A model generated the notes under the pieces. The model was not told where the DNA came from and did no database searches. It was given only the letters and a program-made list of their open reading frames with translations. Below are positions 11,434 through 59,332 of a stretch of DNA of 64,000 nt, piece by piece; positions within the stretch are counted from its first letter, which is position 1; each line of letters opens with the position of its first letter. A program made the position numbers and the translations under genes. The DNA comes from Patescibacteria group bacterium (GTDB lineage: Bacteria; Patescibacteriota; Patescibacteriia; Magasanikbacterales; GWA2-37-8), in contig SCQK01000007.1 in the NCBI GenBank assembly GCA_004321885.1, positions 64,001 through 128,000 of the forward strand. The letters are read 5' to 3'.

Positions 11434-11477
11434 ATGTTTTTCCCTCCCCTTGCGAAGGGGAGGGTTAGGGAGGGGTC

Positions 11478-11906
11478 TTACTCGGGTTTGTAATATCCCC
11501 CGGTATTCACAATCAAAGACAAATCCCTGATTCTGTTATACGACAATCGCGGCATGGCCTTGGCCGCTTCTTCTATTTTTTTCTCCGCGTTCGCTTCGCG
11601 CAATTTTTTCAAATCGGCGTTGGAATATTTTTTCTGCCAGATGCGCAGGCTGGGCCGGCGCGCGGTGCCGGCGATATTTAGGATAAAATAATGAAACGGC
11701 TGGCCGTTGATTTTGACAAAAGCGAAGGTCAGCGACAAGCCGCCGAAAAGCGCGGTGAGGAAAATAAACAAAGCCATGTCGGCCAATTTGAAAGACAAAA
11801 ATATCAACAGACTGCCTGCGAGCAAAATGATAAACTGCCTGGTGGTGATGGGCCCAAAAATTTTGTCTTCCACGTCTATGAATTGCGGCACCGTGAATTG
11901 ATCCAT
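11478..11906 (-). CDS. PrgI-family small conjugation membrane protein (VirB3-like)
   Basis: MDQFTVPQFIDVEDKIFGPITTRQF start and two TM helices, characteristic of PrgI/TcpE-like proteins that accompany VirB4. Confidence 0.55.
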   Translation of the reverse strand: MDQFTVPQFIDVEDKIFGPITTRQFIILLAGSLLIFLSFKLADMALFIFLTALFGGLSLTFAFVKINGQPFHYFILNIAGTARRPSLRIWQKKYSNADLKKLREANAEKKIEEAAKAMPRLSYNRIRDLSLIVNTGGYYKPE

Positions 11907-25327: not shown

Positions 25328-25356
25328 TTGACAAAAGGGTGTTTTTGTGTTATGTT
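25328..25356 (+). promoter_or_regulatory. sigma70-like promoter of the lipoprotein module
   Basis: TTGACA-17nt-TATGTT; mirrored at 28574-28602 on the minus strand. Confidence 0.45.
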
Positions 25357-25433
25357 GTATGGTTCTTTCACAAAGTGCTAAGTAGGCCAGTATATGGCCT
25401 GGTTAGCCACAAAAGAAGGTTTGGGTAAAGAGT

Positions 25434-25572
25434 GTCATTGCGAGAAGGGAGCGTAAGCGACCGACGCCTGTCCGCCTCTGGCGGAAAGCAATCCCAGTCA
25501 ATTACGAAAGGCCTGCCTGTCGGCAGGCAGGGATTGCCGCGTCGCTCACTGCGTTCGCTCCTCGCAATGACA
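25434..25572. repeat. family-A palindromic element (GTCATTGCGAG...GCAATCCC...GGGATTGC...CTCGCAATGACA) in the 5' leader
   Basis: 139-bp near-perfect inverted repeat; copies at 28358-28496, 36856-36937, 51831-51911, 52934-53009 and 54239-54314. Confidence 0.8.
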
Positions 25573-25613
25573 AACAACGTTTTTCCCCGCTTCGGCGGGG
25601 AAGGAGAAAGTCC

Positions 25614-26009
25614 ATGCTGAAGAAATTGATCGCCACCCTCCTCTGCGTCGCGTTCGCGATGCTCGCCGCGTCCTGCGGCGATGATGGCAAGACCCCGCCC
25701 CCGTCCGACGCGCGGGTCTCGCCCGAACTCCGCGCGGACGGTTGTCCGCCCGGACGAAAAAGGGACAACGTGTCCGGCGAGTGCGTGCTCGCCGACGGGC
25801 TTGTGCCAGACACGAAGAAACCCACGCCGGATACGGGTGTGTGCCCCACACTGCCGAAGGAGGAGGTTGCGTGCAAATTGGGCAAAACCACTGTCGTCAG
25901 TTGCACACTGACAAAGTGGAAACCTGGTGGCTGTGTCGACGTGTGGTGCGCGTGCAACACCGACCCTGGTTGTAACGGGTGGTGGCGCCGCGCTGACTGC
26001 GGCCTCTAA
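25614..26009 (+). CDS. small Cys-rich lipoprotein (GC about 65%)
   Basis: signal peptide + lipobox LAASCG; 10 Cys; a paralogue at 27894-28316 on the minus strand. Confidence 0.6.
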   Translation: MLKKLIATLLCVAFAMLAASCGDDGKTPPPSDARVSPELRADGCPPGRKRDNVSGECVLADGLVPDTKKPTPDTGVCPTLPKEEVACKLGKTTVVSCTLTKWKPGGCVDVWCACNTDPGCNGWWRRADCGL

Positions 26010-26019
26010 CCTTCAAAAA

Positions 26020-26050
26020 CTGCACTGAGCAAGACGTTCGGTGCAGTAAA
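26020..26050 (+). terminator. possible terminator hairpin
   Basis: CTGCAC...GTGCAG stem followed by an A/T-rich tract; large loop. Confidence 0.3.
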
Positions 26051-26089
26051 AATTGTATTCTTTAAAAGAAGAACCTAAAAAGAAGAAAC

Positions 26090-26455
26090 TTACAAGACGA
26101 ACTTTAAAAGATTTTTTAATTCTTTTTCCTCTTCTATAAACTTTTTTTTCATCCTGCGAGCGGCGGCATAGCTGATTTGAAAGTCATTTTTTAATTGACG
26201 GGCGGTGTAATTTGAATCGCTTAAATAATTTTCAAACGCGGATAACCATTTTACCAAAGGTATTCTTGTCTTGTGGAATACTACCTCGGAGATGTCGGAA
26301 AATCTCCTTAAACAATTTTGACAAGTGTATTTTTTTATTTTCCTTTTATCTCTAATGGTGTAAACTCTCTTTGAGAAACAATCAGGACAAACCAGACCGC
26401 GAGGCCAATTCATTCTGCGCAGTGCCTGAAGGATTTGCGTTTCAGAATATATCAT
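26090..26455 (-). mobile_element. IS1595/ISXO2-family transposase N-terminal zinc-ribbon domain only (truncated remnant)
   Basis: WPRGLVCPDCFSKRVYTIRD...YTCQNCLRRFS...FHKTRIPLVKWLSAF matches the IS1595 Tnp N-domain; no DDE domain follows. Confidence 0.6.
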
Positions 26456-26456
26456 A

Positions 26457-27842
26457 TCATTTCGGAGCTACAATGATGGATTTGGGAGAGGAGCCGCCGA
26501 AGGGGGTCCAGGCACCACTATCTAAAGGAAAACATTCATCATCGTAAGTATTCCCGGTGATTTGTCTTCTATCATAACACCCCGTCTTCCCCGGGCTATT
26601 CGCGTCACCGCACACCCCATTACACCACCCCCAATTATCCTTGACCTGTACCTTGGGGGTGTATTTGCAACAGCCTTCTTTGAAAGCGAGGTCGGACGGG
26701 CATTGAGAAGCCGGAACAAAGTTGGCGCTGTCTTTGACGCACTGATAGGAATAGTCGGCGCGGAAGTACGCGTTGTCGCAGGTTTTGTCCACAATCTGGC
26801 CGAAGTTGGGGGCGATGTTTTCCGGCAGGCATTGGTCTATGTTTTTGCAGTCATTCACTGACTGGCACTCTTTGTTTGTTGGTTTCTCAGTACCATACAC
26901 TTCTTTGTGCGTCACGGTATTATAAGAAGCTGTTTTTATATAGCAATATTTCTTGGCGTTAAATTCCCCGCCAACGGATTGGAAATCGCATTTCGTGCCT
27001 GTGGTTTTGCCTCGGTGATTGCGGAAGTAGCCCGAGAGCTGAATGGGAGACGAACCATCGCCCCAGTCAATTTTTACATCTCGTATGGGCATCTGGTTCA
27101 TGTCGGCATAAGCGTAAAATTTGAGGGTAACGCGGGAGGGAGAGACCGGTATTTTCACGTCATCACTGGTTTTGTCGTTGATGGTGAGGCCTTCGGTGCC
27201 CTCAAAACAAATGCCATTCCGGCAATTTACCGCTAAAATTTTCGGAGCCAAAGCCGCAGAAGATTGCTCGGTCGCATTGAAAAGATTATTTTGCGAAGAA
27301 ACGCGCGCCTGATAAACTCCAGCCTCATCCAAGCTGTATACATTGTTTAATTTGGCAAACAAATAATTCAAATCGTTAAACATCCCTTTTTCTATCTGGC
27401 TGTCCGAAAGCTGGCTTAGCAGCGGAGGCGCCGGCCTGGAAAAATCAAGCGTGCCGTCCACGGCGCCGCTCGCGGTCTTGTTCGTCTGCCCGCCTGGATT
27501 GATATTTTTGGAACTGTAAGGCGCGCCGGTCACAGTTTGGCTGGTGTTTTGCTGGCGAGGGCCGTACAGTAATTTAATATCTTCCTTATCCGTTAAAGGA
27601 GGATTAGTGATATTTAGACTGCCAAACGGAGACATCAGGGTTTTGAAAATATAGTCGGCCAATTTATCCACACCTGTCGGCGAGGTATGCAAATTAACAG
27701 TAAAATTTCCGCCTTCCCAAATTCTGTTTGTTTTGGCCGTATTGGCCCTGTAAGCCGCGTCCGCGATTTGCATAAATTTTCTTAAAGTAGTATTGCGTAT
27801 TCTCTTGAAAAGAGAAGGGATTCTCTGCTCAAGGGAACGCAC
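26457..27842 (-). CDS. orphan paralogue of the C-terminal ~480 aa of the giant protein (possibly silent cassette)
   Basis: collinear with the giant protein C-terminus; 26560-26860 is about 90-95% nucleotide-identical to 28780-29060. Confidence 0.6.
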   Translation of the reverse strand: MRSLEQRIPSLFKRIRNTTLRKFMQIADAAYRANTAKTNRIWEGGNFTVNLHTSPTGVDKLADYIFKTLMSPFGSLNITNPPLTDKEDIKLLYGPRQQNTSQTVTGAPYSSKNINPGGQTNKTASGAVDGTLDFSRPAPPLLSQLSDSQIEKGMFNDLNYLFAKLNNVYSLDEAGVYQARVSSQNNLFNATEQSSAALAPKILAVNCRNGICFEGTEGLTINDKTSDDVKIPVSPSRVTLKFYAYADMNQMPIRDVKIDWGDGSSPIQLSGYFRNHRGKTTGTKCDFQSVGGEFNAKKYCYIKTASYNTVTHKEVYGTEKPTNKECQSVNDCKNIDQCLPENIAPNFGQIVDKTCDNAYFRADYSYQCVKDSANFVPASQCPSDLAFKEGCCKYTPKVQVKDNWGWCNGVCGDANSPGKTGCYDRRQITGNTYDDECFPLDSGAWTPFGGSSPKSIIVAPK

Positions 27843-27893
27843 CGCGAGGCGATGCGTGAGAAGGTTAGGATGGGTGGGCGAGGTGGGGCGACG

Positions 27894-28316
27894 TCACTGC
27901 TTGGTGCAGGTGACATACTTGTCAGCTGTTTGACAAGATGTCGACTGTGCCGAAGCACAGGGAGCAACCGCCCCCCCCCCGTTCGTACAAGGGAAACGAC
28001 AGCCAGAGCCGTCTTTGTTCTCTGTCCCATCTGGAGAACATTGACGGATTTCTGATCCGGTGCACACCCACGTACCACCTTTCGGGCACTTCCCAGACGT
28101 GGTGTCCGGCGTGGGCGTTCCCTTGTCGCACTTCCCCTGCGCCGAGACGACGCAGGTAGGAAACGAGTCGCCGACGAGCCCGTCGGCGCGGAGAGTGTCC
28201 GCAATGCGCGCGTCGGACGGGGGGGCGGAGCCGGTGTCATCGCCGCAGGACGCGGCGAGCGTCGCGAACGCGACGAGCGTCGCGCAAAGGAGGATAGCGT
28301 TCAATTTCTTCAGCAT
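27894..28316 (-). CDS. small Cys-rich lipoprotein paralogue (GC-rich)
   Basis: MLKKLNAILLC...LAASCGDD lipobox; 12 Cys. Confidence 0.6.
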   Translation of the reverse strand: MLKKLNAILLCATLVAFATLAASCGDDTGSAPPSDARIADTLRADGLVGDSFPTCVVSAQGKCDKGTPTPDTTSGKCPKGGTWVCTGSEIRQCSPDGTENKDGSGCRFPCTNGGGAVAPCASAQSTSCQTADKYVTCTKQ

Positions 28317-28357
28317 GTTCCTTCTCCTTCCCCACCGAAGCGGGGGTTTCGTTGTTT

Positions 28358-28496
28358 GTCATTGCGAGGAGCGAACGTAGTGAGCGACGCGGCAATCCCT
28401 GCCTGTCGACAGGCAGGCTTTTCGTAATTGACTTGGATTGCTTTCCGCCAGAGGCGGACAGGCGTCGGTCGCTTACGCTCCCTTCTCGCAATGACA
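28358..28496. repeat. family-A palindromic element in the leader (inverted copy of 25434-25572)
   Basis: sequence identity. Confidence 0.8.
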
Positions 28497-28573
28497 CCCA
28501 TTACCCAAACCTTCTTTTTGTGGCTAACCAGGCCATATACTGGCCTACTTAGCACTTTGTGAAAGAACCACAC

Positions 28574-28602
28574 CTTATACCACAAAACTGGGGTTTTGTC
28601 AA
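28574..28602 (-). promoter_or_regulatory. sigma70-like promoter (TTGACA-17nt-TATAAG) of the minus-strand lipoprotein module
   Basis: mirror image of 25328-25356. Confidence 0.45.
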
Positions 28603-28698
28603 CCTCGCCAAGAGGCCCCGCCTCCGGCAGGGTCAAGGGTATTGTCGCATGGCGGAGTGAACTCGTCAAGAAAAGATGTGATAAGTGACGATGTTTTT

Positions 28699-31600
28699 TT
28701 ATTTGGGAGCCACGATGATGGATTTGGAGAAAGAAGTAAATGCACCAGTATCATCTGTACACTCATCTTTTCCTCCATTCCAAAAACCCTGATAACACCC
28801 CCCGTCCTTCCCACCCGGACAACTCCCGTTACACCACCCCCAGTTATCCTTGACCTGCACCTTGGGGGTGTATTTGCAACAACCTTCTTTGAAAGCGAGG
28901 TCGGACGGGCATTGAGAAGCCGGGACAAAGTTAGCACTGTCTTTGACGCACTGGTAGGAATAATCAGCTCGGAAGTAGGCGTTGTCGCAGGTTTTGTCCA
29001 CAATCTGGCCAAAGTTGGGGGCGATGTTTTCCGGCAGGCATTGGTCGATGTTTTTGCAGTCGGTATCAGAACCGACTGTCTGGCAGGTTTTCGTCATGGG
29101 CCTCCTTATCTCGTGTTTATCTTCCGGCTGCACATAGGCGTCGGTTACAATGGTGCAGCGATTTTCTTTCACATCCTGATTAAGCGGATTGGGTACACTC
29201 TCACATTTGCCATCCACCTTCCCTCGGTGATTGCGGAAGTATCCATCAAGGACAACCGGCGCCGAGCCATCGTTCCAGTCTATCTTTACATTCCTGATGG
29301 GCATTTGGTTCATATCGGCATAGCCGTAAAATTTGAGGGTAACGCGGGAGGGAGAGACCGGTATTTTTACGTCAGCGCTGGTTTTGTCGTTGAGGGTGAT
29401 GCCGGCTGGCCCTTCGGTGCAAATGCCGCCCTGACAGTTGACAGACAGGACTTTGGGGGCTTTGAGAAAATTACTTAATGTCTCGGTGCGGTTAATTCCT
29501 TTGACTTCGTATGCATCTGAATTATATCGCTTATATATACCGAGATTATCTAGAGCAAATAAATTGTTGACTTTGGCGAATAGACTGTCAAGACGCGACA
29601 CGGAATTTATGCCTGCCGGCAAACCCGCGGGGGCTGGTTTGGTGAAATCAAGAGTGCCGTCCGGATTGCCACTAATTGTTCTGTTGACATAGCCGCCCGC
29701 ACCTGTGCTGCTTTTCGCGCCATACGGAGCGCCCACAATGCTCTGGATGGCATTCTGCTGGCGCGGGCCATAAAGTAACCGCAGGTCTTCTTTTTCCAAA
29801 GAAGGAGGATTGTTGATGTTGAGAGAGCCAAATGGTTCGGTGAGAGTTTTGAAGATGTAATCCGAGCCAGAGCCGGAAAAAGAGACGGAATATTTGCTTC
29901 CCTCCCAAATCCGGTTGGTCCAGGCCGTGCTCTGCCTGTCGGCAACATCGGCGATTTGGTCGCAGTATTCTCTTAATCGCGCCGTCACTTTTATATTTAT
30001 TGGAAAATAAGATTGGCCCGACTGCTCCTCATTTGGCCACCAGCCAGGACCGCCGCCGGCCAAACATTTTGCCACACCGACTTTAATCAGCTTTTTGTCT
30101 TTGTCAAACACCAAAACCACTTCCAAAGATTGCTGTCTGTCTTCTTTGCCGTTATCGCACAAATCGCCGGCGTCTTTGGCGGTCACCTGCATAACACTGT
30201 CTTTCAAACTATCTCCGTATTCGGGAAAAAATCCGGACTGGTCTTTAATGTAGTCGCGTTGCAGAACCCCGGCTCCCGCGTCCCGGTTATCGGAGAAAAA
30301 TCTCATTATGGTGTAATCGTTAAATTGTTTGATGCGCGTTTCCGCCAGCGGCGGCCGCGTGTTGATGGGTTTCTCAAATATTAAAGAATGTTCTTTTTCC
30401 GTATCACACAGTTCGGTTGAGTTGTAAGCGTCTCCTTTCAGCGAACCATCCGCGTTTTCTTCCGCCACCACGCATCCTGATTTGCCCGCCTGGTCAATGT
30501 AATTTTTTCCGTACAATGTTCTGACCCGTTTCGTAATATCGCTCTTGGCGCCATTACGGATAATATATGTGCCGCGCACCACATTATTGTCACCGCCGAT
30601 ATTTATGAACATGTCGGCCTCAATTTCCACCTGGTCTATATCATACAAATGAATGTCGTAATCAGCCACTTGTGAAAAAGTAACTCTGTTAAATAGACTG
30701 CCATATTTCCAAGACGCGGGATTGGGGTCTTTATGGCCGGGAAAATTAAACTCCTGCGGGTCATCTGCTTTGGCGAACGGCGTATAACCGACCATTTTTG
30801 ATGAAACAGAACCTGGTTTGATTATCGTCTCTGCCTTCAATGAATAAACAATGCCCTGGGGCACGAGTGTTCTGCTAAACGGAGACGGCATCAATGGCAA
30901 AAGAGACACGCCATAGCATTCTGACGGGTCGCAAAAATAATGTGCGTCATCGCTATTTGTAAAATATTGACGCGGCTGTTGGTCGCTGCCGGGGACTTGA
31001 TTATAGAGCGACTCTCCGATTTTTGGATTCACAGTGCTATTGATTGTAAGGTCGTTGGAATAAAAGGCGACTATTTGGCCTACTACACTTTTATAAATAG
31101 TGGCGCATCTTTGAATCTTTTCCTTGCTACAAAACCTTCCAAAAAAAGTCGGATAAGCGCTGTAATCGCCCCTATTCCCCGCTTCTCTGGCGCAATAATA
31201 CCGTCCATAGGCCGCGGGCTTGTAGCCGGCTTCGTCAAACTGGTTGTCCACGTCCAATGCCCCATTCAAGGTCTGCACCGGCAGCCAGGACAGGCACTGA
31301 AAGTTGGTCTGCTCGGAATTTATCGGGCGAGACATATCTTTTTCCAGACAAAAACCACGCCAGCCGATGAAGCGGTTTTCTTTTTTCTTGATTTCGCAAG
31401 TGCCGGATGTCTGGCCCGCGCAATCATCGTCAGTCGCGCAGGGCTTGGTGTCATAAGAGCCGCCCAGACAATAGCCCTGGGGCACGGCATTACCTTTGTT
31501 CGGATTGGTGTAGCCCCAGTATTTTACAGTGCTGTCTCCGTAATTTACCTTCGTGTAATCGCATTCGCAGGCAGAAGCGGTTTTGGTGTCCGTGGTTTCA

Positions 31601-37636: not shown

Positions 37637-38662
37637 TTATACCACAAAATTGTCTCGCAGTAATGTGGATAACTGTTTCCACTGCTCTACGGATAATTCT
37701 TGAGCGCGAATGTTTGGGCCAATACCCATTTCAGTAAAAATTTTTTCCAATTTTTCTTTAGCGCCCTCATTGTCATTCCCCCGACTAAGTACGGGGGAAT
37801 CCAGCAACGGCTGTAAATTCTTTATCAATAATTTGCGTTTTTGCGCGAATCCGGCTTTGACCACTTTGAAGAACCACTGTTCATTGTCATCATCGCTGTC
37901 ATCGCTGGCTCCATAGTCCCCCAAAGGGGGCTGTGGAGCCAGAGTGCCGGCCGACATCACGGCTCCATAATCCCGGTCGCCTGCGGCGACCGTGGAACTA
38001 TGGAGCCAGCGATGTTGCTCCATTCCTCGCAATGACAATTTTATCACCGCGCTGTCCACCTTGGGTTCGGGCCAAAAAAATGTTTTCGGCACTTTCATTA
38101 TTATTTCCGGCTCGGCGTAATATTGAACGGAAACAGCAAGCAAAGACATATCCCCCGGCCCAGCGCAAATTCTTTCGGCCACTTCTTTTTGCACCATGAG
38201 TACCATCACGGACGGACTGTCCGCTTCTCCCGCAACAGCGGGATCCCGCTCGCCGCGGGACAAAAATTTACGCAACACGTTGGAAGTGATTTGATACGGC
38301 AGATTGGCCACAACTTTGTATTCTTTATTCCCCATTCCTAATTCTCTATTTTTCAACACATTTCCCCACGCAATTTCCACGTTCTTATGTTTCTTCACTT
38401 GCTCTTCCCAATACGGCTGGAGTTTTTTTTCAATTTCATAGGCAATGACTTTGCCGGCGCGCTCGGCCAGCGCAAAGGTGAGCGCGCCAAAACCCGGGCC
38501 GATTTCAACCACCGTGTCTTTTTTGGAAATTTCCGCCGCCGCGAGCATCTTTTCTATTGGCTCTTCGCGCAACAAAAAATTCTGCCCGTATCGTTTGCTG
38601 GGAGTGAGGCGATACTTGGAGCAGAGATATTTTAAGTGTGAGGTAGCAAATAAGATGGACAT
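37637..38662 (-). CDS. rsmA: 16S rRNA (adenine1518/1519-N6)-dimethyltransferase with two in-frame repeat insertions
   Basis: RYGQNFLL, EIGPGFGALT and VVANLPYQITS motifs; insertions encoded by the family-F repeat (37895-38032) and the family-B repeat (37772-37805). Confidence 0.7.
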   Translation of the reverse strand: MSILFATSHLKYLCSKYRLTPSKRYGQNFLLREEPIEKMLAAAEISKKDTVVEIGPGFGALTFALAERAGKVIAYEIEKKLQPYWEEQVKKHKNVEIAWGNVLKNRELGMGNKEYKVVANLPYQITSNVLRKFLSRGERDPAVAGEADSPSVMVLMVQKEVAERICAGPGDMSLLAVSVQYYAEPEIIMKVPKTFFWPEPKVDSAVIKLSLRGMEQHRWLHSSTVAAGDRDYGAVMSAGTLAPQPPLGDYGASDDSDDDNEQWFFKVVKAGFAQKRKLLIKNLQPLLDSPVLSRGNDNEGAKEKLEKIFTEMGIGPNIRAQELSVEQWKQLSTLLRDNFVV

Positions 38663-41395: not shown

Positions 41396-43064
<1,669 letters not shown>

Positions 43065-43366: not shown

Positions 43367-43399
43367 ATATTATTCTGTCATTCCCCCGACTAAGTCGGG
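43367..43399. repeat. family-B palindrome in the groES 5' region
   Basis: identity to the other copies. Confidence 0.85.
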
Positions 43400-43494
43400 G
43401 GAATCCAGTTATAATTAAAAAAAAGACGCATATTATCACTCTAAATACCAGAGTGATAACTGTGCACCTCATCTTACCATTTTCTCAAAAAATG

Positions 43495-47318: not shown

Positions 47319-48560
47319 TTATTCTTTAGTTTCTTCTACTGGCTCTTCTTTGCTTTCCCCAACCTTTTCCTCAATCGGTTCAGCCGCCGCTTCTTCGCTG
47401 GACATTTCCTGAGTGCCGCCCTTTTCTTTCACATTGATGCCCCAGCCCGTAAGCTGGGCCGCCAGGCGCACGTTTTGCCCGCCGCGGCCAATGGCCAAAG
47501 AAAACTGGTCCGGCGCGACATACGCCGAAGCCGTTTTGCTGGCTTCGTCCAATTCCACTTCCGCCACTTTGGCTGGAGACAGCGCGTTGGCAATATAGTT
47601 GACCGGACTTTCGCCATAACGGATGATATCTATTTTTTCTCCGCCCAGCTCTTCTATTATAGTATTGATGCGTCCACCGCGCTGGCCAATGCACGAACCG
47701 ATGGGGTCTATCTGCTCGTCGTTCGCGTCCACAGCCACCTTGGAACGGTAGCCGGGCTCGCGCGCGATGCCTTTTATTTCAATCAGTCCTTCTTTAAGCT
47801 CGGGAATTTCCTGCTTGAAAATTTCCCGCACCAAACCCGCGTCGGCGCGCGATAAAATTATCTCGGGTCCGCGCGGCCCCATCTGCACCGACTGCACCAA
47901 AAATTTCAGCTTGCTCCCGGAACGATAAAAATCGCGGCTGTTTTGCTGTTCCGCGGGCATAATGCCAGTAACTTTGCCCAAATCAACCAAAGTTTTTCTG
48001 CCTTCCACGCGCTGAATCGTGCCGACAATTACCTGACCTTCCTGACCCTTGAAGTCGTCAAACACCATACTGCGCTCGGCTTCGCGCACCTTTTGGATTA
48101 TCACCTGCTTGGCGGTCTGCGCGGCCATGCGTCCGAAATCGCCCCCAGCCTCCAGCTCAATTTCCAGCACCTCGCCGGCCCGGGCGCCTTTTTTGATTTT
48201 TTTCGCCTCCGAGAGCATCATTTCCAGCTTGGGATTAAAGCGCGGCAAATCAGCCACTTCTTCCTCGGTGAGCTCGCGGCCTTCCTCTTTGGCCTTTTCA
48301 CGCCGCTTGGTCAATTCTTCCTGGGCCGCGACCAGCGCCTCCTCGGCAGTATCTTCCACCACGATTTTCACGTCCCACGCTTTCATATCGCCGGTCTCGG
48401 GGTCAAATTTCACCTTGATGTTCTGTTGTTTGTTGCCAAAATCCTTGCGATAAGCCGCGGCCAGCGCCACTTCTATGGCCTCAAGCACCGCCTCGTAGGG
48501 CAGATTTTTTTCCTCGCACAAAAATTGTATGGCCTTGCTGATTTCCGACATAGTTGTCAT
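47319..48560 (-). CDS. nusA: transcription termination/antitermination factor NusA
   Basis: N-terminal domain + S1 + KH architecture, 413 aa. Confidence 0.9.
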   Translation of the reverse strand: MTTMSEISKAIQFLCEEKNLPYEAVLEAIEVALAAAYRKDFGNKQQNIKVKFDPETGDMKAWDVKIVVEDTAEEALVAAQEELTKRREKAKEEGRELTEEEVADLPRFNPKLEMMLSEAKKIKKGARAGEVLEIELEAGGDFGRMAAQTAKQVIIQKVREAERSMVFDDFKGQEGQVIVGTIQRVEGRKTLVDLGKVTGIMPAEQQNSRDFYRSGSKLKFLVQSVQMGPRGPEIILSRADAGLVREIFKQEIPELKEGLIEIKGIAREPGYRSKVAVDANDEQIDPIGSCIGQRGGRINTIIEELGGEKIDIIRYGESPVNYIANALSPAKVAEVELDEASKTASAYVAPDQFSLAIGRGGQNVRLAAQLTGWGINVKEKGGTQEMSSEEAAAEPIEEKVGESKEEPVEETKE

Positions 48561-48588
48561 TCCCCCGACTTAGTCGGGGGAATCCAGT
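48556..48588. repeat. family-B palindrome abutting the nusA start codon
   Basis: identity. Confidence 0.85.
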
Positions 48589-50928: not shown

Positions 50929-52463
50929 AGATGTTTACCCCTCCCTAACCCTCCCCTTATAAAGGGGAGGGCAATAATAATATACAACAATATCGTCATC
51001 CACCAGCTGATTCGTATTTCCAGCGCGGCCCAGCCCTGTTTTCCAAACCATTCCACTAACATTATAACATACCCAAGTCCGACGCCAACAATCCAGGCCA
51101 CTATCTGTCCCAAAGGAAAAAATATGAAACCGAGCATGACCGCGGCGAATCCAAAAAGCATCAGCCACGGGATAATCCACAGCACCAGCAAATTCACGAG
51201 CGGCGCAACGATAGAGAGGCGGCCGAATTGAAACAGCATCAAAGGCAAAGTGGCGATGATGGCGGAAAGGGTTTGCACCAATGTTTGAAAGAAAAAATTA
51301 ATACTGTCATTGCGAGGAGCCGGAAGCGACGAAGCAATCCCAAGCGATAAATATACGAGTCCCAAAGTCGCTAAAAAAGACAGTTGAAACCCCGCGTCCC
51401 ACACCAGCACGTACGGATTAAAAAGCAACATCAGCGCCGCGGTCAGCGCCAGCACATTGCCCACGCGCGACAAGCGACCCATTTGTTGCGCCAGCAAAAC
51501 AATCACGCCCATTATTCCGGCGCGCACCACCGAAGCCGAGGCGCCGGTAAAGAGCACGAATAAAATTATGCCAACGACCACGGCCCAAAACGCGCGAGGG
51601 CGCGACAGCCCGGCCAGAATAAAAAAACTCATCAGCGCCAAGGCGATGATACTAATGTTGTATCCGGATATGGCGATAATATGAGTGATGCCCGAACGAT
51701 TAAAATCCTCCAGCAGCTCCGTCGGCAGGCCGCTACGCGCGCCGTAGAGCAGTCCGGCCATCAAACTGCTCTTCGGCTCTGGCCAAAGTTTGTCCACCTG
51801 ATTCGCGACAGCCGATTTAAGGCGTAACATGTCATTGCGAGCGACCGTAGGGAGCGCGGCAATCCCATTCTTTGCAAGGGATTGCTTCGTCGTTTCACTC
51901 CTCGCAATGACAGGATTCCCGCACACCGACCAAATCCCATAGCGCGCCAAATACTGGTCATAGCGAAATCCGTCCGGGCTCGCTTTTGGCTCTTGCAATA
52001 CACAAGACAAATTCAACTCCTCTCCATACTCATAGCGCGGATACAGTGGCAGCCAAAAAATAATTTTACCGGAAATATTTTTTGGACAAACAAACGACTG
52101 CCCCGCGCAACTTTTTACTTTCGCCACGTATTTCACGTTGCTTATCCCCGCTTCCGGCTCTTCGCTTACAGCCGCCGTCACTTCCATTTTCTCGCCGTTG
52201 TAATATTTGATACTGCTCGGCGTGATTTTCGGCACGCTGATTAAAAAACGCAAGCCGCCCAAAATAAAAAACAACGCGCAAAGCAGGGCGAAGCGCCAAA
52301 CTTTTTTCTGCCACAGCATTACGGCGAAAAAAAGCGCGGCAAACGCCGCGATAAACAAAGGAAACTGCCAATCACTATTTTCCTGAAGCGAAAACAAACT
52401 CACGCCGGCTATAAAACAAAAGCAAAACGCGAGAAACGTTTTGCTTTTAGAGTGCATTGTCAT
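50925..52463 (-). CDS. comEC: ComEC/Rec2 competence channel protein (N-terminal + competence domains)
   Basis: IIAISGYNISIIAL ... SASVVRAGIMG ... GFQLSFLATLG; start placed at MTMHSK (52463), because the longer ORF call would overlap leuS by 220 nt; two family-A elements in frame. Confidence 0.7.
   Translation of the reverse strand: MTMHSKSKTFLAFCFCFIAGVSLFSLQENSDWQFPLFIAAFAALFFAVMLWQKKVWRFALLCALFFILGGLRFLISVPKITPSSIKYYNGEKMEVTAAVSEEPEAGISNVKYVAKVKSCAGQSFVCPKNISGKIIFWLPLYPRYEYGEELNLSCVLQEPKASPDGFRYDQYLARYGIWSVCGNPVIARSETTKQSLAKNGIAALPTVARNDMLRLKSAVANQVDKLWPEPKSSLMAGLLYGARSGLPTELLEDFNRSGITHIIAISGYNISIIALALMSFFILAGLSRPRAFWAVVVGIILFVLFTGASASVVRAGIMGVIVLLAQQMGRLSRVGNVLALTAALMLLFNPYVLVWDAGFQLSFLATLGLVYLSLGIASSLPAPRNDSINFFFQTLVQTLSAIIATLPLMLFQFGRLSIVAPLVNLLVLWIIPWLMLFGFAAVMLGFIFFPLGQIVAWIVGVGLGYVIMLVEWFGKQGWAALEIRISWWMTILLYIIIALPFIRGGLGRGKHL
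51831..51911. repeat. family-A palindromic element in frame inside comEC (a half copy at 51305-51341)
   Basis: encodes ...IAALPTVARNDM... Confidence 0.8.
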
Positions 52464-52474
52464 TTTAAACACGC

Positions 52475-55012
52475 TCACACAACTATACTCACCAACTTTC
52501 CTTTCACGTAAATCACTTTCTTGGGTTGTTTGCCTTCCAGCCATCTCTGAATTTTTTCGCTGGCGAGCGCGCGGCTCTTCGCCTCTTCTTCGGAGATTCC
52601 CGCCACCACTTCCAAAGTGTCGCGCAACTTGCCATTCACCTGCACGGCCAGAGTGATTTCTTTTTCTTTGGCCAGCTCGGGGTCGTACTTCGGCCACGGT
52701 TCAAATGTGATGGATTTTTTATGTCCCAATAGCGACCACAACTCTTCGCACATGTGCGGAGCGAAGGGCGAAAGAATTTTTACGAATAATTCAAAATTCG
52801 CGATGGAAATTTTTGCCTGCTTTGAAAATTCATTACTCAATTCCATCATTTTCGCTATGGCCGTATTAAATCTCATCGCTTCAATATCTTCGGTGACTTT
52901 TTTGATTGTTTGGTGAAGTAGCTGCGTCATGCTGTCATTGCGAGGAGCCGAAGGCGACGTGGCAATCCCTTTCTTTGTTTGGGATTGCTTCGCTTCGCTC
53001 GCAATGACATTGAGCCCCCACACCCTCTCCAAAAACCTACGCACCCCTATCAATCCATTCGTATCCCACTCCACGGCCTGGTCAAACGGCCCCATGAACA
53101 TTATATACGTGCGCAAAGAATCCGCGCCGAATTTTTCCACCATTTCGTCCGGGTTTACCACGTTGCCTTTTGATTTACTCATTTTTTCTCCGCCTTTGGC
53201 TAAAATCATGCCGTGGCTGGTGCGTTTTTTGTACGGCTCACGCGTGGGCACAGCGCCGATGTCAAACAAAAACTGATTCCAAAAACGGGAATACAACAAA
53301 TGTAGAACCGTGTGCTCCATGCCGCCATTATACCAATCCACGCCGCCTTCGCCCGGCTTCGCGGGCTTCGGCGGGCAAAGCCAATATTTTAGCTTTTCCA
53401 TTGAGGCCAATTTCTTATCGTTTTTCGGGTCGCAGTAGCGCAAAAAATACCAACTGCTTCCGGCCCAATTCGGCATGGTGTCTGTTTCGCGCCGAGCCGG
53501 GCCGCCACATTTCGGGCATTTTGTTTTCACCCATTTTTCCATCGCGGCCAAGGGCGATTCGCCTGTGTCGGTCGGCTCATATTTTTTCACTTTCGGCAAT
53601 TCCAAAGGCAAATCTTCTTCCGCCAGCGGAATCCATCCTGGATTCAATCGCTCACCATCGTTTGGAAATTGGAAATTGGAAATTGGAAATTCCGCTTGTT
53701 TTTCGCACGCGGGACAAAAAACAAGCGGGATGGGTTCGCCCCAATAGCGCTGTCGCGAAAACACCCAATCGCGGAGTTTGTATTGCACTTTTTTCTCGCC
53801 AATCTTTTTTTCTTCCAGCCACTTCATTATTTTTTCCATCGGCTCGGGCACGATTTCCTTTATCGGCAAATTAAATTTCTTGGCAAACTCACTGTCGCGC
53901 TCGTCGTGCGCGGGCACGGCCATAATGGCGCCGGTGCCATAACCGGCCAAAACATAATCCGCTACCCACACCGGAATTTCCTTACCCGTGGCCGGGTTAA
54001 TCGCTTTGATACCCTTCAATTCCACGCCTGTTTTCTCTTTTTGAAGCTCTGTCCTCTCTAAATCCGATTTTTTCTTAGCTGATTCAACATATTTTTTTAC
54101 TTCGTCTATATTTGGAAATTGGAAATTGGAAATTGGAAATTTGAGGAGCGAAGCGACGAGTTCATGTTCGGGCGCGACAACCATGTACGTGGCGCCGAAG
54201 AGAGTGTCGGGGCGAGTGGTGAAGACCTCAAGCACACTGTCATTGCGAGGAGCCGAAGGCGACGTGGCAATCCCTTTCTTTGTTTGGGATTGCTTCACTT
54301 CGTTCGCAATGACAAATTTAATCATCGCGCCTTCGCTTCTGCCAATCCAATTTTCCTGCTGGACTTTTGCGCGTTCAATATAATCCACCTCTTTCAAGCC
54401 CTCCAGTAATTTATCCGCGTACTTGGTAATCGCCAGCATCCATTGCTCCTTATTGCGCCGCTCCACCGGCGTACCACAGCGCTCGCACTTGCCGTCCACC
54501 ACTTCCTCGTTGGCTAAGCCGATTTTACACGACGGGCACCAGTTTATGGGCATGGCTTTTTTGTAAGCCAAACCGTGCTTGAAAAGCTGTAAAAAAATCC
54601 ACTGGGTCCATTTGTAATATTTCGGGTCCGTGGTATCCACCTGCCGCGACCAATCAAAACTTAAACCGAGCGATTTTAGCTGGCGCGTGAAATTGGAGAT
54701 GTTTTTTTTCGTCACCTCGGCCGGGGGTTTGCCGGTCTTGATAGCAAAATTTTCCGTCGGCAGGCCGAAAGCGTCAAATCCAATAGGATACAAAACATTG
54801 TAGCCCTCCATGCGGCGCTTGCGCGAAATAATATCCATGGCCGTGTAGGCGCGCGGATGTCCCACGTGCAAACCCTCGCCGCTCGGATACGGAAACTCAA
54901 TCAAAGAATAAAACTTCTTTTTTTTCTTATCTTCTTTAACCTCAAAAGTCCCGTTCTCTTCCCAAAACTTCTGCCACTTTTTTTCAATTTTTTTCGGGTC
55001 GTATTTTGGCAT
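52475..55012 (-). CDS. leuS: leucine--tRNA ligase
   Basis: HVGHPRAYT (HIGH) and KMSKS motifs, 845 aa; in-frame family-A elements twice ([20 protein letters not shown] duplicated) and (GGAAATT)n runs twice. Confidence 0.9.
52934..53009. repeat. family-A palindromic element in frame in leuS
   Basis: copy at 54239-54314. Confidence 0.85.
53663..53691. repeat. (GGAAATT)x4 heptamer microsatellite in frame in leuS
   Basis: second run at 54107-54140; encodes [10 protein letters not shown] twice. Confidence 0.85.
54239..54314. repeat. family-A palindromic element in frame in leuS
   Basis: near-identical to 52934-53009. Confidence 0.85.
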
Positions 55013-55790: not shown

Positions 55791-55895
55791 ACTTTATACC
55801 CCACCCTGTGTCCCTCCCCTAAAAGGGGAGGGGAATGTTTGCGTGCCTACATTTTATCGCAAACAGGGCTAAAAATCAAATTACGCCCGGATAAA

Positions 55896-55924
55896 TTGAC
55901 CTAACTGCCCAGTTCGTTTATACT
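55896..55924 (+). promoter_or_regulatory. sigma70-like promoter (TTGACC-17nt-TATACT)
   Basis: well-spaced hexamers on the plus strand in a minus-strand gene neighbourhood. Confidence 0.5.
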
Positions 55925-55930
55925 ATTGCT

Positions 55931-56182
55931 AAGCGTGGTGTGCTGTCTGTCGCTTATCAGCGGCTGAAAGCCCCACACAACACTCCAACGAGGAGGAACA
56001 ATGAAAGTCGGCAACAGAGCAGGCCCGGCCCAGAGCCGAGCCAACAACACGCGCTGATCGCAGAAGCCAACCGCCTCTTCGGGGCAGGAGGTGAAAATGC
56101 ACTGGCCGTGACAAACACGGACGGCGTAGGCACTGTGACGGAGCAGGACCAGGGGGCGGTCTCGACGACGCCCCTTTTTTTA
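55931..56182 (+). ncRNA. candidate small RNA or micro-ORF transcript (GC about 62%)
   Basis: promoter, then about 250 nt containing SD-ATG micro-ORFs (56001-56057 encoding MKVGNRAGPAQSRANNTR; 56097 encoding MHWP), ending in a GGGGCG...CGCCCC-T7 terminator at 56152-56182. Confidence 0.4.
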
Positions 56183-56192
56183 ATCTCAGCTA

Positions 56193-56313
56193 AATTAAAA
56201 CGGAGGGTATATATAATTTTTGTAGCGGCCATCGCACCCCCGCGGGGCAGCGGTCGCCGCAGGCGACCCTGTTTGGCCGCAAAAAAATTATATATACCCT
56301 CCGTTGTTTTAAT
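56193..56313. repeat. long hairpin element with conserved about 55-bp core (GCGGCCATCGCACCCCCGCGGGGCAGCGGTCGCCGCAGGCGACCCTGTTTGGCCGC) and 28-bp perfectly paired outer arms
   Basis: abuts the trxA stop; a second copy at 56698-56804 has the same core but different, still perfectly complementary arms. Confidence 0.7.
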
Positions 56314-56634
56314 TTACGCGTACTTCTCCAGCATCTCTTTCAACTTCTCTTTCTGCACCCCGCCCGTCAGCTGGTCCACTATCTGGCCGTCCTTGAAAAC
56401 CATAAACGAAGGGATACTCAACACACTATACTGCGCGGCCGTGTCGCCGTTCTCGTCCACATTCATCTTGCCGATTTTAATGTTCTTGCCCTCAAATTCC
56501 TTGGCCAATTCTTCCACTATCGGCCCCATCATCTGGCACGGCCCGCACCACGGCGCCCAAAAATCCACAAACACCGGCTGTTTGGATTGCAAAACCTCCT
56601 CGTTAAAATTTTTGTCGGTAAACACGTTGTCCAT
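56314..56634 (-). CDS. trxA: thioredoxin
   Basis: WAPWCGPCQ active site, 106 aa. Confidence 0.9.
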   Translation of the reverse strand: MDNVFTDKNFNEEVLQSKQPVFVDFWAPWCGPCQMMGPIVEELAKEFEGKNIKIGKMNVDENGDTAAQYSVLSIPSFMVFKDGQIVDQLTGGVQKEKLKEMLEKYA

Positions 56635-56648
56635 ATTTATTTTTTTCT

Positions 56649-56682
56649 GGATTCCCCCGTACTTAGTCGGGGGAATGACAGC
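56649..56682. repeat. family-B palindrome in the trxA 5' region
   Basis: identity. Confidence 0.85.
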
Positions 56683-56697
56683 TTGTGTTTAATTATT

Positions 56698-56804
56698 AGC
56701 AAAGTTTTGTGATTTTTTTCGCAGCGGCCATCGCACCCCCAAGGGGCAGTGGTCGCCGCAGGCGACCCTGTTTGGCCGCAAAAAAAAATTCACAAAACTT
56801 TGCC
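56698..56804. repeat. second copy of the conserved-core hairpin element (between the infB stop and trxA)
   Basis: see 56193-56313. Confidence 0.7.
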
Positions 56805-56805
56805 T

Positions 56806-58824
56806 TTAACTTAACACCAACTTTTTCTCCTTTTCCTCTTCCTTGTAACACTCCAGCACATCATCTATCTCCAATTTTAATTTACCCTCAAACTGCGCCC
56901 CGCACTCGCTACCCTCGGGCACTTCGTTCAAAATCTGCTTGGCCACCTGCAACTGCGACAACTTACCCAAGCCGATAATCTCTTCCCCGCGCTTTACTCG
57001 CGCTTTACAGCCCTTCTGCAGTTTGCCCTGTTCCACGCGGCCGCCGACTATCATATTGCCCTTGCCGGTGCGGAAAATCGCCACCACCTTGAACACCCCG
57101 AGTTCAGTAGTAATTTTTTCCGGACTCAACAACTTGCCCATTTCTTCTTTGACGAAATCCAGCAGGTCGTAAATTATTTTGTACTCATTATACACTAATT
57201 TTTTATCGCGCGCCATTTCTTGCGCCACCGGGTTGATGGTAACATTAAAAGCAAAAAGCATGGCGCCGGCGGCTTCGGCCTTGGCCACGTCATCTACCGT
57301 CACATTGCCCAGGCCCTTGCCCACCACGCGCACGCCCACCTCGTCATTTTTAATTTTTCCCAGCGAACCGATAATCGCTTCCAGCGAGCCGAGCGTATCG
57401 CCCTTCACCACCACGTTCAAAACCTTCTTTTGCTCGTCGCTTTCAGCCGCGCCCAGGGCAAAAGTTTCTTTTTCCGCGCCCATCTGCTTATTTTTTTTCT
57501 CTTTTATGTCAATGGCCTTGGCCCCGGCGGCCGCGGCCACGTCCAAAATATCCCCCACGGCCGGCGCCACCTTAAATCCCAGAATGCGCGCCGGACAGCT
57601 GGGCGGGGCCGTCAGCAAATTTTCTCCTTTGTGATTTTTCATGGCCCGCACCTTGCCGTAAATCTCGCCGTTTATCACCAGCGGGTCGTTCACGCGCAAA
57701 GTGCCGGTCTGCACCAAAATCGTGGCCACCGGGCCTTCGCCCTTGTCCACGTGCGCCTCAATGACCGTGCCCGCGGCCGAGCGGTCCGGATTGGCTTTAA
57801 TGCTGTCGGCATGCACGTCGGCCACTAAAAGCAACACATCAAGTAGCTTATCTATGTGCAAATTCTGTTTGGCGGAAATTTCCACCATGGGCGTGTCCCC
57901 GCCCCACTCCTCGCCTATCACTCCGTTTTGCGACAAATCAACGCGCACCTTTTGCGGGTCAGCTCCCTCTTTGTCAATTTTATTGAGCGCCACCACGGTC
58001 GGAATTTTGGCGGCCTTGATAATGTTTATCGCTTCCAAGGTTTGGGGCTTGACGCTGTCGTCGGCCGCCACCACCAGAATGGCGATGTCAGCCACCTTGG
58101 TGCCGCGGCTGCGCATCACCGTAAAGGCCTCGTGCCCGGGAGTGTCTATAAATGTCAGGGGGGATTTTTCTTTGGTTTTGGGATTGGTCCAAATCACCTG
58201 ATAAGCGCCGATGTGCTGGGTAATGCCACCAGCCTCGGATTCCATGACATTGGTGCGTCGAATAGCGTCTAACAATTTTGTTTTACCGTGGTCAACGTGC
58301 CCCATCACCACGATAACGGGCGGGCGGCGCGTGGTAGCGTCCGCGGCCAAAATTGATTCCAAATTATTTTCGTGCGCCGAGACTGCTTCGGTTTTTTGCT
58401 CGGGTTCGCGCACGGTAAAACCGAATTCCTGCGCCATCAGCACGGCCGTGTCATGGTCCAGGCGCTCGTTTTGCGCAGCCAAAATTCCGTTTTTCATGAG
58501 TTCAACGATAAGGCCGGTAACCGGCATCTGCAAAATATCGGCGAATTGGCGCACGGTCAGCTGGTTTGGTATGGCCACGCTGGCGCCGCTCGTCTGGCGC
58601 GCCTCTTTTTCCAGCTCTTTTTGTTTTTCTTTTTCCTTGCGCTCGCGCTCTTCCAGCACGAACTTTATCCGTTTCCAGGCGCGCTGAATCTGCTGGGCCA
58701 CGCGGTCATCCACTTTCACGGCCCGAGCGCCGATATCAAAACCAAACTCTGGCAAAATTTGCAAAAGTTTTTGGGGGTGGACTCGGAGTTGTCTGGCCAG
58801 TTCGCTTACGTTCATAAAGCTCAA
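56806..58824 (-). CDS. infB: translation initiation factor IF-2
   Basis: GHVDHGKT, DTPGHEAF and NKID GTPase motifs, 672 aa. Confidence 0.9.
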   Translation of the reverse strand: MSFMNVSELARQLRVHPQKLLQILPEFGFDIGARAVKVDDRVAQQIQRAWKRIKFVLEERERKEKEKQKELEKEARQTSGASVAIPNQLTVRQFADILQMPVTGLIVELMKNGILAAQNERLDHDTAVLMAQEFGFTVREPEQKTEAVSAHENNLESILAADATTRRPPVIVVMGHVDHGKTKLLDAIRRTNVMESEAGGITQHIGAYQVIWTNPKTKEKSPLTFIDTPGHEAFTVMRSRGTKVADIAILVVAADDSVKPQTLEAINIIKAAKIPTVVALNKIDKEGADPQKVRVDLSQNGVIGEEWGGDTPMVEISAKQNLHIDKLLDVLLLVADVHADSIKANPDRSAAGTVIEAHVDKGEGPVATILVQTGTLRVNDPLVINGEIYGKVRAMKNHKGENLLTAPPSCPARILGFKVAPAVGDILDVAAAAGAKAIDIKEKKNKQMGAEKETFALGAAESDEQKKVLNVVVKGDTLGSLEAIIGSLGKIKNDEVGVRVVGKGLGNVTVDDVAKAEAAGAMLFAFNVTINPVAQEMARDKKLVYNEYKIIYDLLDFVKEEMGKLLSPEKITTELGVFKVVAIFRTGKGNMIVGGRVEQGKLQKGCKARVKRGEEIIGLGKLSQLQVAKQILNEVPEGSECGAQFEGKLKLEIDDVLECYKEEEKEKKLVLS

Positions 58825-58904
58825 CTACCCTCTCCTGTTAGGGGAGGGATAAAGGGATGGGGTATCCACTCAATATCCCTAAAATCTTACTCTCTTACAC
58901 TGAA

Positions 58905-59015
58905 TTAGTCAAATACGGGAATATCGCTGGCTCCATAGTGCCCGACTTAGTCGGGGCTGTGGAGCCGTAATGCACTCTGGCTCCACGCACAGCATGGAGC
59001 CAGCGACATTTGACA
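58905..59015. repeat. family-F composite palindrome (GGCTCCATAG..CCCGACTTAGTCGGGG..CTGTGGAGCC..)
   Basis: related copies at 7895-7950 and 37895-38032. Confidence 0.7.
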
Positions 59016-59063
59016 CGCGCCCGATTTTGTGATAAAGTGATTTCACAATTAAAATAATAATTC

Positions 59064-59095
59064 TGGATTCCCCCGACTTAGTCGGGGGAATGACA
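59064..59095. repeat. family-B palindrome upstream of rny
   Basis: a second copy at 59204-59234. Confidence 0.85.
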
Positions 59096-59332
59096 GATGA
59101 GATTTTTGAGGGAATTTTTTAAGAGGAAACTCGTATGGCTCGTGCGGCTGAAACTGCCAAAAATACGCTAACGAAAACACTTTCAAGCGCTATCCGTGTG
59201 TGGGTTCCCCCGTACTTAGTCGGGGGAATGACAAACGAATCGGCCATCACTTCGGCTTTGTTTGCGTTCGTAAAATAAACAAGGCCTCTCTTCTTAAAAT
59301 TTTCGCCCGCAAAAATCGCGGAAATTTTTTGT

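Follow-up and report, generated by a model that had tools for sequence, protein, structure and literature searches.

The locus lies in a 64-kb window, the whole stretch of DNA analysed here, in which infB and trxA have rny, an IMPase, leuS and comEC as neighbours. The earlier note had placed two long hairpins at the 3′ ends of infB and trxA; both gene identifications were confirmed, but the strand had to be corrected to minus. The features of the locus are listed below.

56806–58824, minus strand: infB (IF-2), 100% identical to NCBI protein TAN33570.1 (a 'Patescibacteria group bacterium' MAG)
56698–56805, no strand assigned: composite hairpin B, in the infB–trxA spacer
56647–56680, no strand assigned: a separate small hairpin repeat, GTCATTCCCCCGACTAAGTACGGGGGAATCC, between hairpin B and the trxA start codon, with at least seven copies in the window
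56314–56634, minus strand: trxA (thioredoxin, 106 aa; PF00085, 1e-33)
56191–56316, no strand assigned: composite hairpin A, directly 3′ of trxA, with the trxA stop codon (56314–56316) in its stem

The next infB relatives are ~75% identical and mostly labelled Magasanikbacteria, and the annotated infB product of 669 aa probably places the start at 58815. The order rny–truB–infB–trxA–leuS–comEC was also found in relatives and, judged by this shared gene order, infB–trxA–leuS–comEC is a conserved housekeeping synteny. Where it is empty, the infB–trxA spacer of relatives is 37–58 nt long vs. 171 nt here.

Both hairpins sit where they had been placed, at the 3′ ends of infB and trxA: hairpin B starts 2 nt 3′ of the infB stop codon (56806–56808), and hairpin A overlaps the trxA stop, its stem also taking in 2 nt of the last trxA codon. 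The perfect stem of hairpin A comprises 23 bp (56199–56221 with 56283–56305), with 9–10 bp more pairing beyond a 3-nt bulge (TTG, 56304–56306) out to 56191/56316, while that of hairpin B comprises 14 bp (56699–56712 with 56790–56803), and its pairing extends across the T7/A9 runs with one bulged T. The outer stems had been described as different and perfectly compensated; the arms do differ, but neither stem is perfect, as each has one bulge. As minus-strand RNA, hairpin A folded at -73.7 kcal/mol (z = -10.0 vs. shuffled controls) and hairpin B at -62.1 kcal/mol (z = -7.9), the plus-strand RNA folds scored similarly, and the ssDNA folds had z = -10.1 and -8.2, respectively.

The unit common to both hairpins is 64 nt long (56224–56287 and 56723–56786; 61/64 identical, BLAST E = 7.6e-25) and is composed of a 57-nt core and an A7 run. 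The claim of two long hairpins with a near-identical core is thereby borne out, with three mismatches in the 64-nt unit and fold z-scores of -7.9 to -10.1. The 29-mer and 18-mer halves of the core each occur exactly twice in the window vs. 0.00–0.08 expected, and the two copies have the same orientation and lie 499 nt apart. The MFE fold of copy A reproduced a three-way junction with stems P1, P2, and P3, as follows.

56224–56280, plus strand: core copy A, a 57-nt Y-shaped three-way junction
56225–56231/56274–56280: P1 of copy A, GCGGCCA/TGGCCGC
56237–56247: P2 of copy A, CCCC-CGC-GGGG
56248–56271: P3 of copy A, CAG-C-GGTCGCC-GCA-GGCGACC-CTG
56723–56779, plus strand: core copy B, differing from copy A at 56741–56742 and 56750
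56217–56287, plus strand: probable inserted module A, T5 + GT + core + A7

Copy B has AA where copy A has GC in the P2 loop (56741–56742), and T where copy A has C in the P3 bulge (56750). All three differences (two P2 loop bases and one P3 bulge base) are thus at unpaired positions, and the core fold is preserved. As 15 of the 57 positions are unpaired, the chance of this is ~0.02, or ~0.07 if GC>AA is counted as one event, which weakly supports the idea that the fold is maintained, as DNA or as RNA. A covariance model built on the three-way junction (model R1) scored copies A and B at 96.2 and 95.5 bits. All six reading frames of the core are open.

A constant core within compensated outer stems had been taken as the signature of a structured RNA. 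In such a case, a protein or RNase would bind the Y-shaped tip, and the long helix would serve in cis as a signal for the processing or stability of the infB–trxA transcript, the tip being kept by selection and the stem left free to vary. The very strong fold, the restriction of all copy differences to unpaired positions, the same orientation to the genes and the same post-stop position of both copies, and the ~4.5 kcal/mol better fold of hairpin B on the mRNA strand all agree with this proposal. However, for hairpin A the strand is not distinguished, since both strands fold equally well, and the homology searches found no RNA family.

At the Rfam gathering threshold only two tRNAs passed in the window, and a permissive scan (E ≤ 10) added mir-148 (21.5 bits vs. 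a threshold of 53) and isrD (19.5 bits vs. 37), which are hairpins matched by chance. A tRNA-like or ribozyme identity was also considered and rejected; ARAGORN found only the two tRNAs in the window, and hammerhead-type core motifs were absent. Model R1 found no core at the syntenic loci of three relatives. The exact core 29-mer had no match in one genome per GTDB species (596 Gb of genomes), and a gapped P1 plus junction pattern had two matches in these genomes, both in alphaproteobacterial coding sequence. The core 20-mer had six matches in the JGI metagenomes, all in unrelated sequence, and exact core patterns had none in the IMG/VR viral contigs. BLAST of the core returned nothing from phages and only chance GC-rich Streptomyces matches from plasmids, while its six-frame translation matched none of 5.8 billion proteins. 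Thus, none of the public collections searched yielded another copy; as far as it could be tested, this is the outcome that the earlier note itself had named as speaking against its proposal.

Within the window, model R1 recovered copies A and B and then only weak matches (37904–37943, 37969–38013, and 7901–7944) to a second local family with the architecture GCTGGCTCCATAGT-hairpin-CTGTGGAGCC, which can also be written GCTGGCTCCAT-AGT-hairpin-CTG-TGGAGCC. Its members are as follows.

37896–38026, minus strand: rsmA element, an inverted doublet of GCTGGCTCCATAGT-hairpin-CTGTGGAGCC units (R1 21.8 and 18.0 bits)
58923–58966, plus strand: single unit, ATCGCTGGCTCCATAGT-GCCCGACTTAGTCGGGG-CTGTGGAGCC, upstream of infB
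7901–7944, minus strand: single unit inside ORF 7465–8262 (R1 13.3 bits)

The second family and the core share the same ..CCAT / CTGT..TGG.. frame, with three P1 pairs that differ, each on both sides, and one unit of the rsmA doublet holds the identical GGTCGCC-GCA-GGCGACC hairpin of the core. By this resemblance, the core appears weakly related to the second family. The two inverted units in rsmA form a 115-nt hairpin, and the element constitutes a ~39-aa in-frame insertion relative to B. subtilis KsgA; its translation, searched together with the family against proteins, matched only the RsmA of this genome. The occurrence of the same sub-hairpin within a protein-coding insertion is a further point against a functional RNA.

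The outer arms bear on the same proposal. Those of hairpins A and B are unique in the window and no more alike than composition-matched shuffles (p = 0.40 and 0.33). The arms are therefore non-homologous, and their "perfect compensation" is not covariation; as far as sequence comparison can tell, they are different sequences, and not homologous positions that co-varied. Moreover, covariation cannot be demonstrated from a single genome with two copies that lie 499 nt apart. With arms at shuffle level, no Rfam family, and no homologue at the same sites in the three relatives or by exact patterns in the genomes, metagenomes, and viral contigs, the proposed signature did not hold, and we regard a functional cis-acting RNA as rather improbable.

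The imperfect hairpins directly downstream of each ORF, in a gene–hairpin–gene–hairpin layout, superficially resemble a cassette array, and attC-like sites, with trxA as an integron-type gene cassette, had been suggested as an alternative. But the hairpin ends carry no RYYYAAC/GTTRRRY box (R″/R′) on either strand, and here the tip is conserved and the base variable, the inverse of attC. Further, a Pfam search of ~50 window ORFs revealed no integron-integrase-like gene, tyrosine recombinase, or Y1 transposase, and the flanking genes are housekeeping genes in an order that is conserved in relatives. This alternative was therefore abandoned as extremely unlikely.

The base of hairpin A resembles a known kind of structure, and its gene-proximal part is given below.

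56297–56316, minus strand: gene-proximal base of hairpin A, reading TAA-ATTAAAA-CAA-CGGAGGG on the mRNA strand, that is, an A-tract and the 5′ half of a GC stem

Its partner, 56191–56209, supplies CCCTCCG + TTTTAATTT, so that on the minus strand CCCUCCG is followed by UUUUAAUUU, with the A-tract upstream, which fits a GC stem followed by a U-tract. By its sequence, the base of hairpin A thus looks like an ordinary bidirectional terminator (A-tract, 7-bp GC stem, and U-tract). Two relatives, L012 and L001, have a normal short terminator 3′ of trxA. After the trxA stop, L012 reads TAAATTAAAATTAAAAACAAAAGGGCTCC-gcgatgt-GGAGTCCTTTTGTTTTT and the window reads TAAATTAAAACAACGGAGGG ... CCCTCCGTTTTAATTT, with 10 nt, TAAATTAAAA, identical at the same position in both. 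The gene-side flank of hairpin A, TAAATTAAAA..CAA.., therefore appears ancestral, with a homology that rests on ~12 AT-rich nt. The terminator-like base and the flank match to L012 suggest that the core is an insertion in a terminator loop, and 56217–56287 would be the inserted unit. This loop now holds ~93 nt, composed of AT-only arms, T-run, core, and A-run. The AT-only inner arms (TATATATAA in hairpin A and TTTTGTGA in hairpin B) fit neither the terminator nor the shared module.

At the base of hairpin B, no terminator features and no homology to relatives were found; it reads CUUUGC and then UAAUAAUUAAAC, which is not a GC stem followed by a U-tract. Its stem has the same AT-rich style as the terminator 3′ of leuS (52418–52448), which shows that hairpins with AT-rich 12-bp stems are an ordinary feature of gene ends in this genome. 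A simple terminator scan flagged neither hairpin A nor B because their loops exceed 8 nt.

The two modules match over the core and the A-run, and a T-run stands 2–3 nt upstream of either copy; on the plus strand, T5–7 plus 2–3 nt precede the core and A7–9 follow it. Owing to this symmetry, the GC hairpin is preceded by a U-run and followed by an A-run on either strand, and the polarity of the module is the opposite of a terminator on both strands. The mobile terminator module that the earlier note had listed came closest among its alternatives, but the polarity of the module is wrong for a terminator, and in hairpin A it seems to sit inside a terminator that existed before.

The outer stems could also postdate the core, or owe their existence to its arrival, if template switching during replication at the very stable GC-rich hairpin copied one flank as its reverse complement. 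The structure would then be a self-extending hairpin with one arm the original flank and the other its copy, and the palindrome would have been grown and re-perfected. Both the formation of a perfect stem in a single event and the repair of pairing have been documented for template switching (PMC8794818). Five perfect stems of ≥14 bp with a loop of <90 nt were found in the 64 kb, and three of the five (hairpins A and B and the rsmA element) enclose a GGTCGCC-NNN-GGCGACC hairpin. Around a large loop, only hairpins A and B and the rsmA doublet have perfect stems of ≥14 bp, so within 64 kb such stems only enclose these GC-rich hairpins. No empty long AT-rich hairpin or palindrome centred on a T-run/A-run was found elsewhere in the 64 kb, as template switching would have it, and this also counts against an insertion into hairpins that were there before. 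In addition, the stop codon (in hairpin A with 2 nt of the last codon) lies in the stem, so that the gene-side arm is constrained and the distal arm is its complementary partner.

However, every element of a normal terminator, such as those of the relatives, is already present at the base of hairpin A, and a single copying event would leave no bulges, yet both stems have them. The left flank of hairpin B, compared with the infB coding end beyond the stem, showed no significant match (10/19 matches, p = 0.06), and the outer stem of the rsmA element is explained by its two inverted units and not by flank copying. Template switching is the chief alternative account of how the stems arose and is, in our estimate, unlikely, while the terminator-like base of hairpin A and the bulges argue for pre-existing hairpins.

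The reading we prefer, to which we give a probability of roughly 0.55, is that A and B are copies of a REP/MITE-like palindromic module that is specific to the lineage and lodged in the loops of hairpins at gene ends, hairpin A being a terminator and 3′ protector and hairpin B an intercistronic hairpin. The module would be a non-coding piece of ~71–76 nt (T-run, 57-nt GC-rich Y-shaped core, and A-run) of the REP/BIME/NIME/MITE-like mosaic class. Each copy would cap a hairpin that is specific to its locus and follows immediately on a stop codon, and the outer stems would be host sequence. For hairpin A, the outer stem would be the ancestral bidirectional trxA terminator, the loop of which now carries the insertion. 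Insertion into REPs and other hairpins is known (PMC1525189), and the pneumococcal BOX, RUP, and SPRITE elements insert into one another (PMC10969869). The module may have moved as DNA into the hairpin loops, and a candidate mover, encoded outside the window, would be a REP-targeting activity or one of the single-strand HUH/Y1 type. Transcribed in the infB–trxA mRNA, the composite hairpins would most likely be passive RNA structures. Hairpin A probably still serves as the trxA terminator and 3′-end protector, and the probable role of hairpin B is to stabilise the mRNA between the cistrons or to direct its processing, with read-through inside the infB–trxA operon, a non-terminating role proposed for it since a U-run precedes and an A-run follows.

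Two further findings stand against the preferred reading: the ~50 window ORFs scanned with Pfam include no suitable kind of transposase, and no target-site duplication was consistent between the two copies, the flanks of hairpin B (GTGA / TCAC) not being direct repeats. Two recombination-related features of the window were considered and set aside. A large serine recombinase (4164–5672) lies 50 kb off, beside tRNA-Ser and conjugation-type genes, and a link is implausible; an IS1595 zinc-ribbon fragment (26090–26455) has no connection to the hairpins.

With two copies known that lie only 499 nt apart, the core may also have been copied by local duplication or gene conversion. Perfect inverted repeats can come from MDA or assembly chimeras, and an artefact with chimeric inverted duplications was considered for that reason. 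Such an origin is hardly credible here, as the arms are short (14–33 bp) and placed precisely in intergenic spacers with intact genes on either side, the same core occurs twice with different arms, and the structures are bulged.

The T-run/Y-core/A-run module might instead be a non-autonomous element of an undescribed type, which either targets the apical loops of existing stems or seeds inverted repeats from its flanks by template switching. We hold this to be quite unlikely; if true, it would mean nested, Russian-doll hairpins at gene ends, and the module would be part of a wider modular palindrome system that also colonises essential ORFs of a reduced Patescibacteria genome.

Under the preferred reading, the module has to be compared with known palindromic repeats. 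REPs are simple imperfect hairpins of ~20–40 nt present in tens to hundreds of copies per genome, and they have a cognate Y1 (HUH) transposase gene that is usually REP-flanked. A GTAG head immediately precedes the REP palindrome (PMC3333891, PMC2817692), the general 5′ form being GT(A/G)G. The head reads GTAG in copy A (56222–56225), as in REPs, but GCAG in copy B (56721), and GCTG in the related local family. The core further resembles REPs and BIMEs as a GC-rich palindrome that occupies extragenic spacers, both immediately behind genes and between cistrons, and in its expected role as an mRNA 3′ hairpin. The inverted doublet of the related rsmA family recalls BIMEs and REPINs, in which a short linker parts two inverted units, although A and B are themselves not inverted. 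Unlike the simple hairpin of a REP, the core forms a branched three-way junction of 57 nt that holds two internal hairpins, has two copies in 64 kb with no RAYT gene among the window ORFs scanned, and stands at the tip of a longer, copy-specific hairpin.

Like BOX, RUP, SPRITE, and other MITEs and the Neisseria NIMEs, the module is a small, non-coding, strongly folding intergenic repeat of a clustering kind. BOX/RUP/SPRITE-type repeats can resemble or sit at terminators (PMC10969869), whereas the module here has anti-terminator polarity. It also differs from MITEs in that it has no conserved terminal inverted repeats beyond the T5–7/A7–9 runs and no target-site duplication. IS1397/ISKpn1 and ISPpu9/ISPa11 insert into REPs, with the palindrome loop or centre as the target (PMC1525189), and palindrome-targeted insertion of this kind would give nested hairpins like A; however, these are full insertion sequences with a transposase, while the piece here is ~70 nt and non-coding. 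The sibling repeats that lie in frame in leuS and rsmA, with the genes undisrupted, are reminiscent of Rickettsia palindromic elements (RPEs; PMC10969869), but both core copies are intergenic and have no sequence similarity to RPEs.

The overall importance of the finding is modest. For RNA discovery, it is a warning that a constant core with different perfect stems is not covariation and can be the product of template switching or of an insertion into hairpins that are unrelated to one another. If further copies exist in the rest of this MAG, their flanks would reveal whether hairpin loops are the target, in which case the module would be a natural example of hairpin-in-hairpin mobility. More broadly, it shows that lineage-specific mosaic palindromic repeats have colonised a very small Patescibacteria genome to a high degree, where they occupy gene ends, 5′ leaders, and in-frame sites within essential genes, and these in-frame palindromic insertions may be the more interesting lead.

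Several other palindromic families populate the window: a GTCATTCCCCCGACTAAGTCGGGGGAATCC repeat with at least seven copies, a ~80-nt TGTCATTGCGAGG...CCTCGCAATGACA element with at least six, and many CCCTCCCC-loop-GGGGAGGG hairpins. Inner hairpins are common to families whose outer stems differ. The number of such families, some of them in frame in leuS and rsmA, indicates that colonisation by repeats is general in this genome and, by analogy with BIMEs/NIMEs or BOX/RUP/SPRITE clusters, the core is one module of a mosaic palindromic repertoire. In LeuS itself, comparison with a 73%-identical homologue showed four repeat insertions, all in frame.

Four in-frame repeat insertions were found in LeuS by comparison with a 73%-identical homologue, and two kinds of source sequence were recognized for them. 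Two of the insertions encode VIA(N/S)E(V/A) plus 20 further residues and derive from a TGTCATTGCGAGG...CCTCGCAATGACA palindromic element, while the other two encode a 10-residue peptide originating from a (TTGGAAA)n tract. In this Patescibacteria genome, the insertions behave like the Rickettsia palindromic elements (RPEs). RsmA carries an in-frame insertion of about 39 aa, composed of GCTGGCTCCATAGT-[hairpin]-CTGTGGAGCC units arranged as an inverted doublet, and a second in-frame hairpin, GTCATTCC...GGAATC, lies downstream of it.

Genes with in-frame repeats and the repeat positions
52475-55012, minus strand, leuS
54236-54314, 52929-53010, 54111-54144 and 53661-53691, LeuS insertions
37637-38662, minus strand, rsmA/ksgA
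37896-38026, RsmA insertion
37771-37804, second hairpin in rsmA

Another hairpin family, CCCTCCCC-loop-GGGGAGGG with a frequent GGGAGGGGTATT tail, occurs at 7688-7797, 11439-11476, 12320-12342, 12473-12495, 12914-12951, 13294-13384, 50937-50974, 55796-55832, and 58828-58865. The long ORFs 7465-8262, 11908-13101, and 13094-14425 remain unbroken despite the many copies inside them.

A 34-nt hairpin repeat, TGTCATTCCCCCGACTAAGTCGGGGGAATCCAG, was present in at least seven copies in the window (43030-43064, 43375-43408, 48555-48587, 56647-56680, 59061-59096, 59205-59233, and 37771-37804). Several copies are located 3–16 nt upstream of the start codons of groES, groEL, nusA, and trxA, suggesting that the repeat plays a role in 5′ leaders or is tolerated there. 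A CIRCE-like TTATCACTCT-N7-AGAGTGATAA sequence was also observed upstream of groES, at 43433-43459.

In relatives, rny and infB are separated by truB and a small ORF. The corresponding interval in the window (58825-59332) measures only about 500 nt and is taken up by palindromic repeats of four different kinds; truB therefore seems to be missing at this site. In the infB–trxA spacer of one relative (locus L011, 12110-12145), an AT-only 10-bp stem, ATATTTATAA/TTATAAATAT, is capped by a very small GC hairpin, TCGC-AA-GCGA. The element reproduces in miniature the AT-outer, GC-tip architecture of the composite hairpins, with an unrelated sequence.

Between the IMPase gene and trxA, a plus-strand unit of about 250 nt (55896-56185) is bracketed by a promoter-like site and a hairpin, and contains a tiny ORF (56002-56058) with a strong SD (MKVGNRAGPAQSRANNTR). 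The unit had no match in Rfam and was not present in the trxA–leuS spacers of relatives.

Elements bracketing the unit
55896-55924, plus strand, promoter-like site TTGACC-17-TATACT
56153-56185, plus strand, hairpin with T7

Elsewhere in the window, 2154-24000 is probably an integrated conjugative-type element, within which GC falls to 0.385 at 16–18 kb.

Components of the probable conjugative-type element
2154-2246, tRNA-Ser
4164-5672, large serine recombinase
8876-10747, TraG/VirB4-like ATPase
11478-11906, PrgI-like protein

Duplicated segments of 185–408 bp were found in 25343-29403 (25343-25741 with 28180-28587, 26616-26852 with 28825-29061, and 27007-27233 with 29219-29403), surrounding two ORFs: one at 26090-26455, which has an IS1595 transposase zinc-ribbon, and one of 461 aa that is unannotated.
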